From: Natronosporangium sp.
GTDB taxonomy: Bacteria; Actinomycetota; Actinomycetes; Mycobacteriales; Micromonosporaceae
Assembly: GCA_035306365.1 (NCBI GenBank)
Contig: DATGOE010000206.1
Span: 5,461-69,460, forward strand
Reading direction: 5' to 3'
DNA: 64,000 nucleotides
A program made the translations under genes and the position numbers. The notes below the pieces were generated by a model. That model searched no databases, had not been told where the DNA came from, and saw only the letters and a list, made by a program, of their open reading frames with translations. Of the stretch, positions 33,479 to 36,900 are shown piece after piece (positions within the stretch are counted from its first letter, which is position 1; each line of letters opens with the position of its first letter).

Positions 33479-34438
33479 GTGGACGTGGCCGCACAGCAGT
33501 CGATCGTGATCAACGGTGATCTTGGCAGCGGTAAGACCACCGTGTCGGTGATGCTGGCGCAACGCCTGGGCGTGCGGCGCATCAGCGTCGGCGACATCTA
33601 CCGCCGGATGGCCGAGGAGCGCGGGATGACCGCGCTGCAGCTCAACCTGCACGCCGAGCTCGACGACGAGGTCGACGGGTATGTCGACCGACTGCAGCGG
33701 GAGATCGCCCGCTCCGGAGAGCAGCTGGTGGTGGACAGCAGGCTGGCGTGGTTCTTCTTCACCGACGCCCTGAAGGTCCACCTCATGGTCGACCCGACGG
33801 TCGGTGCCGGCCGGGTGCTCGCCCGGCCCGACAAGGCGGAGACCTACTCGTCGCTCGCCGAGGCCAAGCAGCGGCTGCGGGAGCGCAGCGAGAGCGAGCG
33901 GGTGCGCTTCCTGACGCGGTACGGCGCGGACAAGACCCGGCTGCGCAACTACGACCTGGTGTGCGACAGCACCCGGGCGCAGCCCGAGGAGATCGTCGAG
34001 CACGTGATCGCGGCGTTCGAGGGCCGGCTGGCGCCGGAGGTGGTACGGGAGAACCCGCCGCTGATCCTGGCGGACCCGGCGCGGATCTACCCGACCCAGG
34101 AGATCGGGGTGCTGCGCGACCTCGACGGTGCGCCGGACACCACCCCCCCGGCCGACGAGCCGGCGCCGCCGCTGCGGCTGGGACACGCTGACGGGCACCT
34201 GTTCGTCGTGGACGGTCACCGTCGACTGAGCCAGGCCCTGCGGTCCGGCAGCCGGCTCGTCGCGGCGAGCCTGGCGGCCGAGGGTGACGAGGTGGTGGTC
34301 GGAGGGCTGTCGGCCCGCAGCTACTTCGAGGCCGAGGTCGGCCGGAGCATGATCTACGACTGGTGCGCCGCGCACGGCACCGACCTGCCGCTGCCACCGC
34401 ACCTGGCCCGCGCGGGCGCCGGCACCGTGGCCGAGTAG
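33479..34438 (+). CDS. Archaeal-type (type 2) cytidylate-kinase-like protein fused to a C-terminal ParB/Sulfiredoxin-like domain
   Basis: GDLGSGKTT, VVDSRLAWFF, RxxSERxRFxxxYG, YDLVCDST; tail has IYPTQ and FVVDGHRRL. Confidence 0.75.
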   Translation: MDVAAQQSIVINGDLGSGKTTVSVMLAQRLGVRRISVGDIYRRMAEERGMTALQLNLHAELDDEVDGYVDRLQREIARSGEQLVVDSRLAWFFFTDALKVHLMVDPTVGAGRVLARPDKAETYSSLAEAKQRLRERSESERVRFLTRYGADKTRLRNYDLVCDSTRAQPEEIVEHVIAAFEGRLAPEVVRENPPLILADPARIYPTQEIGVLRDLDGAPDTTPPADEPAPPLRLGHADGHLFVVDGHRRLSQALRSGSRLVAASLAAEGDEVVVGGLSARSYFEAEVGRSMIYDWCAAHGTDLPLPPHLARAGAGTVAE

Positions 34439-34458
34439 CCCGGCGGGGGACCGGCGAC

Positions 34459-35382: not shown

Positions 35383-35470
35383 GACGTGACATCACGTCCC
35401 GACCATGATCGTCACGCCCGACCACGATCACCACGTTCCGGCCACGATCACCGCGTCCGCGACCATGATC
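35383..35470. repeat. Palindrome plus four ~20-bp imperfect tandem repeats upstream of mihF promoter
   Basis: GACGTGA-CA-TCACGTC (35383-35398); units GACCATGATC/GACCACGATC/GGCCACGATC/GACCATGATC start at 35401, 35420, 35440, 35461. Confidence 0.75.
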
Positions 35471-35521
35471 ACGGCGTGGCGCACGGCGACCGTCGGGTGG
35501 CCGACACGGCACCGGGCGTTA

Positions 35522-35640: not shown

Positions 35641-35955
35641 GTGCCCCTCCCAACACTGAGCCCGGAACAGCGTGCTGCTGCGCTCGCCAAGGCGGCCGAG
35701 GTCCGGAAGGCCCGGGCGGATCTGAAGGAACAGCTCAAGAAGGGTCAGATCAGCCTGGGTGACCTGCTTGCCCGCGCCGAGACCGACGACGTGGTCGGCA
35801 AGCTCAAGGTCTCCACCGTCCTGCAGGCCCTGCCGGGTATCGGCAAGGTCAAGGCGGTGCAGACCATGGAGCGGTTGAAGATCGCTGACAGCCGGCGGCT
35901 GCGCGGCCTCGGAGAGCAGCAGCGCAAGGCGCTGTTGAACGAGTTCGGCTCCTGA
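35641..35955 (+). CDS. mihF: Actinobacterial integration host factor (mIHF/sIHF)
   Basis: LPTLSPEQRAAALAKAAEVR, LPGIGKVKA, SRRLRGLG; pyrF-mihF-gmk-rpoZ synteny. Confidence 0.97.
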   Translation: MPLPTLSPEQRAAALAKAAEVRKARADLKEQLKKGQISLGDLLARAETDDVVGKLKVSTVLQALPGIGKVKAVQTMERLKIADSRRLRGLGEQQRKALLNEFGS

Positions 35956-36003
35956 TCCGGTCGCCGGCCGGACAGGACGTCGCCGGCCGGATAGAAAGAG
36001 GCG

Positions 36004-36528
36004 GTGGGAGACAACAGGACGGCGCGCCCGGCCGCCCGGCTCACGGTGCTGTCGGGTCCCTCCGGGACCGGCAGGCACCGCGTCGCCGAGCTGGCCCGGG
36101 CGCGTTCGTCTGCCCGCTGGCGTCCGGTGCCGGTGACCACCCGACCGCGGCGCGCCGACGAGGTGGACGGAGTCGACTACCGGTTCGTCAGCCGGTCCGA
36201 GTTCGACGCGCTGCTGCGTGCCGGCGACCTGCTGGAGTGGGCCGAGGTCGGCGGCGACCGGTACGGCACCCCGCGATCGCCGGTGGAGAGCCGGTTGCGC
36301 CGGGGGGAGCCGGTGCTGGTCAGCCTCGACCTGCCCGGCGCCCGGCAGGTCCGTCAGGCGGTGCCGGAGGCGGTGTCGGTCCTGCTGGTCCACCCGGACG
36401 CCGTCACCGACGGTCACCGTCAGGCGCGCGCGGCCGGGTGGGAGTACGACGCCACGGTCGTGAACGACCTCATCGAGCGGGCTGTCGCGGAACTGGTAGG
36501 ATTGCTCGGCCCGTCCGCACCGCGGTAG
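36004..36528 (+). CDS. gmk: Degenerate guanylate kinase homolog (probable pseudoenzyme)
   Basis: gmk position; TTRPRR..EVDGVDY.F, LLEWAE, YGTP retained; P-loop is GPSGTGRH, SVS motif is PVP, LID shortened. Confidence 0.85.
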   Translation: MGDNRTARPAARLTVLSGPSGTGRHRVAELARARSSARWRPVPVTTRPRRADEVDGVDYRFVSRSEFDALLRAGDLLEWAEVGGDRYGTPRSPVESRLRRGEPVLVSLDLPGARQVRQAVPEAVSVLLVHPDAVTDGHRQARAAGWEYDATVVNDLIERAVAELVGLLGPSAPR

Positions 36529-36636
36529 GCCGGACCACACCGGCGGCCGTCCGGTGCGGACGTCGGACATGTCAGACTCAAGCACCCGGCCCCCTCGCGC
36601 CAACGGTGGCGCACGGGCCGGTTAAGGGAGAAGATC

Positions 36637-36900
36637 GTGCCTGGAACAGTCGCACAACCGGAGGGGATCACCAACCCGCCGATCGATGAGCTGCTGGAGC
36701 GCAGCTCGTCCAAGTACGCGCTGGTGATTTTCGCGGCTAAGCGGGCGCGCCAGATCAACGCCTACTACAGCCAGCTCGGTGAGGGCCTGCTGGAGTACGT
36801 CGGCCCGCTGGTGGAGACCACCCCCCAGGAGAAGCCGCTGTCGATCGCGCTACGCGAGATCAACGCCGGGCTGCTGCGGGCCGAGCCGGCCGAGACCTGA
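36637..36900 (+). CDS. rpoZ: RNA polymerase omega subunit
   Basis: [40 protein letters not shown]. Confidence 0.99.

Follow-up and report, generated by a model that had tools for sequence, protein, structure and literature searches.

In the window analysed here, i.e., a stretch of 64,000 nucleotides from Natronosporangium sp. (assembly GCA_035306365.1, contig DATGOE010000206.1, positions 5,461 to 69,460), the open reading frame (ORF) at 36004-36528 occupies the slot of the guanylate kinase gene gmk and encodes a protein (Gmk) that should be catalytically dead. The gene is retained by purifying selection, and its decay among the Micromonosporaceae is associated with a second gene of the window, here called AltK, that encodes a candidate replacement for the kinase of guanosine monophosphate (GMP) and a predicted partner of the dead protein. 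The source metagenome-assembled genome (MAG) belongs to the Micromonosporaceae and to the same GTDB genus as Natronosporangium hydrolyticum. The gmk locus contains the following elements:

35641..35955, plus strand: mihF, ancestral upstream neighbour, used as synteny marker
36004..36528, plus strand: catalytically dead guanylate kinase (Gmk) of 174 amino acids, guanylate kinase (GK) fold kept, LID deleted
36055..36081, plus strand: P-loop, residues 18-26, with K24R; predicted contact to AltK 273-286
36124..36162, plus strand: hinge prolines P41 and P43 (yeast S33 and S35 positions) and the retained GMP-phosphate pocket T45, T46, R47, R50, E53; predicted grip on AltK Y293/D294
36397..36441, plus strand: LID remnant of 15 residues (35 in intact relatives)
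36637..36900, plus strand: rpoZ, ancestral downstream neighbour, used as synteny marker

The ORF is intact and lies in the mihF-gmk-rpoZ slot, as a preliminary description of this DNA had stated. It is the sole PF00625 match in the assembly, which is 77.8% complete and in which no second gmk copy was found. Its product is a single domain whose nearest relatives are the Micromonosporaceae Gmks, and it reaches 124 bits against the Gmk family profile (TIGR03263), whose cut-off is 160. The P-loop Lys, present in 11 of the 11 intact rows of the alignment, is replaced by R24, followed by H25 (codons 36073-36078). The LID is 20 residues shorter than in intact relatives and every LID arginine is lost, much as previously described. 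P43 (36130-36132) aligns with the conserved guanine-binding hinge Ser, i.e., yeast S35, which bears out the proposed Ser-to-Pro change, and P41 is likewise new. Position 107 is Ser in place of an acidic residue, with D109 retained.

The preliminary description had also counted the missing Ser/Thr of the P-loop and the lost acidic residue of the LEID motif among the signs of death. Both changes are real, but in intact Micromonosporaceae Gmks (e.g., L014, within L009-L029) the P-loop Lys is followed by Asp, and position 107, the Mg-binding acid of other Gmks, is Lys. Since catalytically intact members of the family already differ at these two positions, neither is a sign of death, and the missing acidic residue was rejected as a lesion. 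The Asp/Lys arrangement of the intact enzymes, found without exception in 26 sequences, looks like an exchange of charges, the usual residues in other actinomycetes being Ser and Glu.

Judged from the sequence, the diagnostic lesions are K24R, the deletion of 20 of the 35 LID residues with all the LID arginines, and S43P, and the protein should be inactive according to the established structure-function relationships of GK domains (PMC4325336, PMC4718807). The residues of the GMP-phosphate pocket and the guanine carboxylates (R47, R50, Y59, E78, Y87, and D109) are all present, and structure prediction, which had been suggested as a check, still gave a GK fold, with a predicted local distance difference test score (pLDDT) of 86 and a template modelling (TM) score of ~0.8 to M. 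tuberculosis Gmk (1znw/1s4q). An assembly artefact was rejected, since contigs built from one DNA run cover 35920-36768 without differences (this run could be the source sample itself), and the sister genome G008 and the Logan protein P0003, both ~90% identical, carry all the same lesions.

The loss of the LID, down to remnants of 8-20 residues, is repeated in the Gmk copies of N. hydrolyticum, Micromonospora, Plantactinospora, and several further genera. In 44 of 45 alignment rows the hinge Ser has been replaced, most often by Pro and otherwise by Ala, Val, Leu, or Thr. In these alignments, loss of the hinge Ser is general, and Pro appears to be favoured or tolerated, not required. The residues T45, T46, R47, R50, E53, and D109 are invariant in 16/16 degenerate sequences tabulated, and T45, R47, R50, E53, and D109 are kept in 42-45 of the 45 rows of the larger alignment. 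Both pocket tyrosines are Arg in Micromonospora, and thus the claim that the GMP-pocket residues remain holds for the window protein, not for all its relatives. In Glycomyces G166, gmk is decaying differently, with the hinge Ser kept and an AltK of the type found in gmk-deleted genomes. S20 and S35, the other serines of the protein with TCN codons, persist in 14-15 of 16 dead sequences, and the hinge Ser in none; a generic Ser-to-Pro drift fails to explain these persisting serines, but it may explain Pro as the first replacement.

The ratio of non-synonymous to synonymous substitution rates (omega), estimated with codon models, was 0.215 for 21 dead gmk copies of Micromonospora, and omega = 1 was rejected (twice the log-likelihood difference, 408). 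Four other sets of dead gmk genes, including that of the window genome, gave 0.14-0.28, intact gmk genes gave 0.03-0.07, and a neutral simulation under GC-biased mutation yielded 0.81-0.98. Within the dead Gmk, omega is 0.08 in the GMP-binding lobe versus 0.31 in the remainder. The reading frame is open in all LID-deleted copies read, with neither stops nor frameshifts, and, given omega values far below the neutral range, a pseudogene was rejected: dead gmk is retained by purifying selection. The preliminary description had pictured a pseudogene as orthologues decaying at random with an unconserved Pro; omega, at about 0.2, speaks for retention by selection, and the Pro is indeed not conserved.

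Guanylate kinase is regarded as indispensable to bacteria and nearly universal among them. A replacement was therefore sought, and the candidate is AltK, which in the window is located between bioA and pyrF:

33479..34438, plus strand: AltK, 319 amino acids, putative substitute GMP kinase, predicted to bind the dead Gmk
33497..34027, plus strand: N-terminal nucleoside monophosphate (NMP) kinase domain of archaeal-type (type-2) Cmk fold (TIGR02173, 102.7 bits versus a cut-off of 102.1)
34055..34396, plus strand: C-terminal ParB/Srx-like domain with a GxxR motif, from a weak Pfam match and structural neighbours
34214-34225, plus strand: GxxR motif, G246-R249
Residues 206-215, 243-247, and 273-298 (V274, Y293, D294) of the C-domain: predicted Gmk-docking residues (predicted interface)

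The N-domain has an intact P-loop (Lys19) and invariant R136, E140, and R143, and its best fold match is 3hdt (Z score 18.7, root-mean-square deviation 2.9, 161 residues aligned), followed by 3fdi and Cmks. The C-domain gives weak Pfam ParB matches in orthologues (E 0.16-0.24) and Atlas structural neighbours of ParB type (TM 0.57-0.58); fold searches returned the kinase domain only. Just past the AltK stop, one base is absent at 34439 in four of four runs, and position 34457 is C in three or four of them, which is probably an assembly error or a strain difference and alters the apparent start of pyrF. Between pyrF and mihF, a 9-base word recurs several times at 35400-35475 in short, imperfect copies.

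We have surveyed 301 Micromonosporaceae genomes and, as a class control, 396 other Actinomycetes. The gmk gene is eroded in 68/301 and deleted in 30/301 Micromonosporaceae genomes, the eroded status being read from the sequence in ~40 genomes and assigned from the E-value by genus in the remainder, and 97 of these 98 genomes carry AltK. Of the 113 AltK-positive genomes, 68 have an eroded gmk and 16 an intact one. In the other 29, gmk is missing or persists only as a remnant; these are G145, G195, and all 27 members of genus g65, which clusters in the tree with named Dactylosporangium. Among the 188 AltK-negative genomes, gmk is intact in 181; of the others, two have single frameshifts, one a contig edge, three an unassembled locus, in which rpoZ is lacking as well, and one a true deletion. 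The two frameshifted genes (G153 and G210) are otherwise pristine, and the frameshifts are probably read errors. The deletions were verified by mihF-rpoZ gaps of 154-555 base pairs (bp), including those of complete Dactylosporangium chromosomes, and a separate Streptosporangiales-like MAG clade is likewise AltK-positive and gmk-deleted. In the class control, AltK was found in 0/396 genomes; the gmk match was strong in 392, interrupted by a frameshift or a contig end in three, and unassembled in one. Genomes from outside the Actinomycetota (CPR, small Gammaproteobacteria MAGs, and archaea), which are small and incomplete and carry only remote AltK relatives, mostly confined to the kinase domain, were left out of this comparison.

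According to a tree of flanking genes, gmk has decayed or been lost in about eight lineages; the number falls to seven if G000/G008 and G005 are of common origin, a possibility that was not rejected (approximately unbiased test, p-AU 0.052). Independent pairs agreed in direction in 5.7 of 7 and were opposite in none (median p 0.03). Canonical cmk is intact in 6/6 AltK genomes tested, and a role of AltK as a replacement of Cmk was rejected for this reason. The recurrent loss of gmk in the presence of AltK, together with the retention of canonical cmk, indicates that AltK most likely replaces the GMP kinase, and from these gene patterns we consider it quite probable that AltK phosphorylates GMP. 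The preliminary description had missed that gmk is dispensable only where this second kinase is present.

The location of AltK varies: it lies before pyrF in the window, between priA and def in Micromonospora, and unlinked in Dactylosporangium. Five near-full-length relatives, sharing 31-37% identity, are carried by plasmids, and a search for phage copies found none. The variable location and the plasmid-borne relatives fit a horizontal spread. A distant relative from Bacteroides ovatus (L225:7186-11602) is clustered with genes for Sa_NUDIX, NTP_transf_6, SDR, thymidylate kinase, and radical SAM proteins, which may form a defence operon that modifies nucleotides, and another relative is also located upstream of a radical SAM gene. 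The gmk gene often adjoins yicC, and on a proteobacterial-looking contig (L227:8001-11396) a relative of AltK stands two genes from a yicC that has no gmk beside it. In addition, guanylate kinases of unusual length (262 and 279 amino acids) form two Bacillota clusters whose feature likeness to AltK is 0.85-0.87 (ESM Atlas), a lead only; these proteins might be Gmk fused to an AltK-like domain.

The pocket of the dead Gmk is kept only beside AltK, and AltK was therefore chosen as partner for complex prediction. Dead Gmk and AltK gave a score of 0.90, the best of three controls giving 0.00; the mark used for this score was reached by 58/80 solved complexes and 2/110 mismatched pairs, counts that apply only roughly since own alignments were used. 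At least 85% of the contacts are common to the prediction runs, and the partner pLDDT is at least 92. The predicted interface involves the AltK C-domain only, which sits in the GMP and ATP sites of Gmk: Y293/D294 contact T45, R47, R50, E53, and Y87, V274-G276 contact the P-loop and residues 130-131 and 154-157, and the segments 206-215 and 243-247 of AltK also touch Gmk in the model.

The sequences of AltK, which are independent of the complex score, vary in agreement with this interface. Identity at the interface is 0.36 among four gmk-deleted AltK lineages versus 0.57 among four dead-Gmk lineages, whereas the rest of the C-domain (0.58 versus 0.59) and the N-domain (0.73 versus 0.70) hardly differ. 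AltK positions conserved in dead-Gmk genomes are retained in gmk-deleted genomes in 52% of cases at the interface versus 78% elsewhere (p 0.002, rows not independent). The best-scored contact, V274, is Val in 15/16 dead-Gmk genomes, the exception being Glycomyces G166, and in 0/13 gmk-deleted ones. The decay is reciprocal: in genomes with intact gmk, the C-domain of AltK is usually truncated or eroded and the kinase domain is kept, and C-domain profile scores are 125-183 where gmk is dead or gone and 7-109 where it is intact, the profile having been built from dead and deleted genomes. A docking-type surface is also present in G341, whose gmk is pristine except for one frameshift, and in the outgroup P0393, so that binding of Gmk may predate its death. 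Taken together, the model and the co-variation indicate that the likely ligand of dead Gmk is AltK, neither the phosphoprotein of the preliminary description nor RNA polymerase; a link to the omega subunit or mIHF is not supported beyond the ancestral gene slot.

On these grounds we favour, with moderate confidence, a displacement of Gmk by AltK after which dead Gmk would persist as an AltK-bound, non-catalytic subunit. A horizontally spread, two-domain AltK would have taken over the phosphorylation of GMP to GDP, releasing the host Gmk from catalysis; its N-terminal domain is slightly preferred over the C-domain as the catalyst. The C-domain would plug the open Gmk cleft as a two-substrate mimic, with D294/Y293 in the GMP-phosphate pocket and V274-G275 at the P-loop/adenine site. 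The lineages that gained AltK fall into three states. In the first, the C-domain decays and Gmk remains active, as would be expected if the C-domain either served GMP turnover alone or were harmful to Gmk. In the second, gmk is deleted and the docking surface of AltK drifts. In the third, to which the window belongs, Gmk has lost its LID, catalytic Lys, and hinge Ser, and would stay open and be kept as a non-catalytic subunit. The dead Gmk would then cap the nucleotide-binding face of the AltK C-domain, probably regulating or stabilising AltK, and guanine nucleotides competing for the pocket could possibly release this cap.

Several observations weigh against this displacement model, besides the mixed assignment of gmk status, the possible common origin of two lineages, and the composition of the C-domain profile mentioned above. 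The substrate of AltK is deduced from gene patterns only, its fold and annotation being cytidylate kinase-like, and its distant relatives, e.g., that of B. ovatus, lie in apparent accessory nucleotide-modifying clusters. The alignment of the partner contained six intact Gmk sequences, and the predicted pose may partly reflect likeness, because solved MAGUK-peptide complexes use the same pocket. On the Gmk side, neither changed nor invariant sites are significantly enriched at the interface (p 0.09-0.35), and 17/19 AltK copies from intact-gmk genomes belong to one clade. Dead Gmk cannot be required for AltK, because at least four lineages have deleted gmk. Lastly, in G121 (L270; 96% complete) gmk is cleanly deleted, leaving a 337-bp mihF-rpoZ gap, and AltK was not found. 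The G121 case may represent an assembly gap or a second replacement, and no alternative kinase stood out in this genome.

The same displacement could have occurred with the dead Gmk being only a relic, whose reading frame and fold persist because their loss would have polar effects on rpoZ-coaBC-metK-priA, and with its binding to AltK vestigial or spurious. The omega of dead gmk is indeed 3-6 times that of intact gmk, its composition drifts to GC-rich residues (glycine, alanine, arginine, and proline, GARP, 0.36-0.49 versus 0.32-0.39), the changes Ser to Pro, Lys to Arg, and Tyr to His or Arg are all AT-to-GC changes, and deletion of the whole gene is viable. However, the strongest constraint falls on the surface-exposed GMP lobe, S20 and S35 are largely kept in the 16 tabulated sequences and the hinge Ser in none, and the docking residues of AltK are conserved only where a LID-less Gmk exists, and thus a relic appears unlikely.

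It is more improbable still that another broad-specificity enzyme (Cmk, Adk, PPK2, or an enzyme not yet known) supplies the GMP kinase activity, AltK being otherwise employed, e.g., as a nucleotide-modifying or toxic protein, and Gmk having been captured as its inhibitor or antidote. G121, without both genes, would fit this explanation, as would the AltK relatives located on plasmids or among Sa_NUDIX, nucleotidyltransferase, thymidylate kinase, and radical SAM genes, and according to a preprint (bioRxiv 10.64898/2026.05.05.722872) a toxin can arise by repurposing of the ParB fold. Nevertheless, if other enzymes sufficed, loss of gmk without AltK would be expected, and it was seen once in ~580 AltK-negative genomes with the locus assembled; moreover, AltK stays intact in genomes from which gmk, the supposed antidote, has been deleted.

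A MAGUK-like reader of phosphoproteins or of (p)ppGpp/GMP, acting on omega, mIHF, or other targets and unrelated to AltK binding, is very improbable. It would account for the hinge proline and the retained pocket, and the s36P change alone gives GK protein binding (PMC4718807, PMC4325336), but the gene slot is ancestral and hence uninformative, neither the proline nor the two tyrosines are conserved, and the co-variation of the AltK surface points to AltK as the ligand. The pseudo-kinase of MAGUK type proposed in the preliminary description thus survives as a dead enzyme under selection with a predicted protein partner in its GMP pocket, and not with Pro as a conserved requirement. Least tenable of all is a composite enzyme in which LID-less Gmk would contribute the binding site for GMP, and AltK would add, in trans, the catalytic arginines and the site for ATP: the GxxR face (243-247) lies within the predicted interface and the GMP lobe is the most constrained region, but D294 occupies the GMP-phosphate pocket in the model, and lineages without any gmk thrive on AltK alone.

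The association of dead or lost gmk with AltK is real and recurrent, and a literature search found no publication on it, most subscription papers being outside its reach. Whole antibiotic-producing genera, namely Micromonospora, Salinispora, Plantactinospora, and Dactylosporangium, appear to lack a working guanylate kinase, and databases still label the dead copies as guanylate kinase. These genera point to an unrecognised GMP kinase that may also fill a gap in archaea, where four control genomes gave PF13189 matches in 4/4 and PF00625 matches in 0/4. A wider reading can be offered only tentatively as a whole, namely that AltK is a new guanylate kinase family on the archaeal-type Cmk fold whose extra domain plugs the active site of the host Gmk and creates host dependence, that the host Gmk has converged several times on a MAGUK-like open pseudo-enzyme regulating its own replacement, and, by extension, that the archaeal type-2 'Cmk' could be the archaeal GMP kinase.

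Compared with known systems, AltK resembles the archaeal-type (d)CMP kinases (TIGR02173/PF13189), whose cut-off its N-domain narrowly passes and whose fold it shares, but it is fused to a ParB/Srx-like domain, coexists with a canonical Cmk, and tracks the loss of gmk and not of cmk. The C-domain, with its GxxR motif, recalls the ParB-CTPase/Srx-fold enzymes (SerK, SbnI, and sulfiredoxin). According to the text and supplement of a survey of ParB-fold fusions, this fold binds ATP, CTP, or GTP in many fusions, and a cytidylate- or guanylate-kinase fusion is not mentioned there (bioRxiv 10.1101/2025.10.10.680097). The complementary distribution of AltK and gmk and the repeated loss of an essential gene are those of a non-orthologous gene displacement. 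The replacement of ThyA by ThyX is an example of this process; here, in contrast, the displaced Gmk is commonly kept, and AltK, its displacer, apparently binds it.

The dead Gmk is orthologous to bacterial Gmk (TIGR03263, PF00625; M. tuberculosis Rv1389), has the same slot and fold, and keeps the GMP-phosphate arginines, but it is devoid of the P-loop Lys, the LID arginines, and the hinge Ser, and it is dispensable in related genera. With the GK domain of MAGUKs (Dlg/PSD-95; GKPID) it shares the expected loss of activity, the Pro at the same hinge Ser, and a GMP pocket predicted to hold an acidic residue of a protein. Unlike that domain, it has an independent bacterial origin, stands alone without PDZ/SH3, has its LID deleted and its Pro not fixed, and its predicted ligand is an unphosphorylated, folded kinase domain. 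Thus, neither descent nor architecture makes the dead Gmk a MAGUK, but judging from the modelled complex it probably works like a MAGUK GK domain, and the dead copies would represent repeated natural bacterial replays, with a named partner and interface, of the switch from enzyme to protein binder behind the MAGUK scaffolds.
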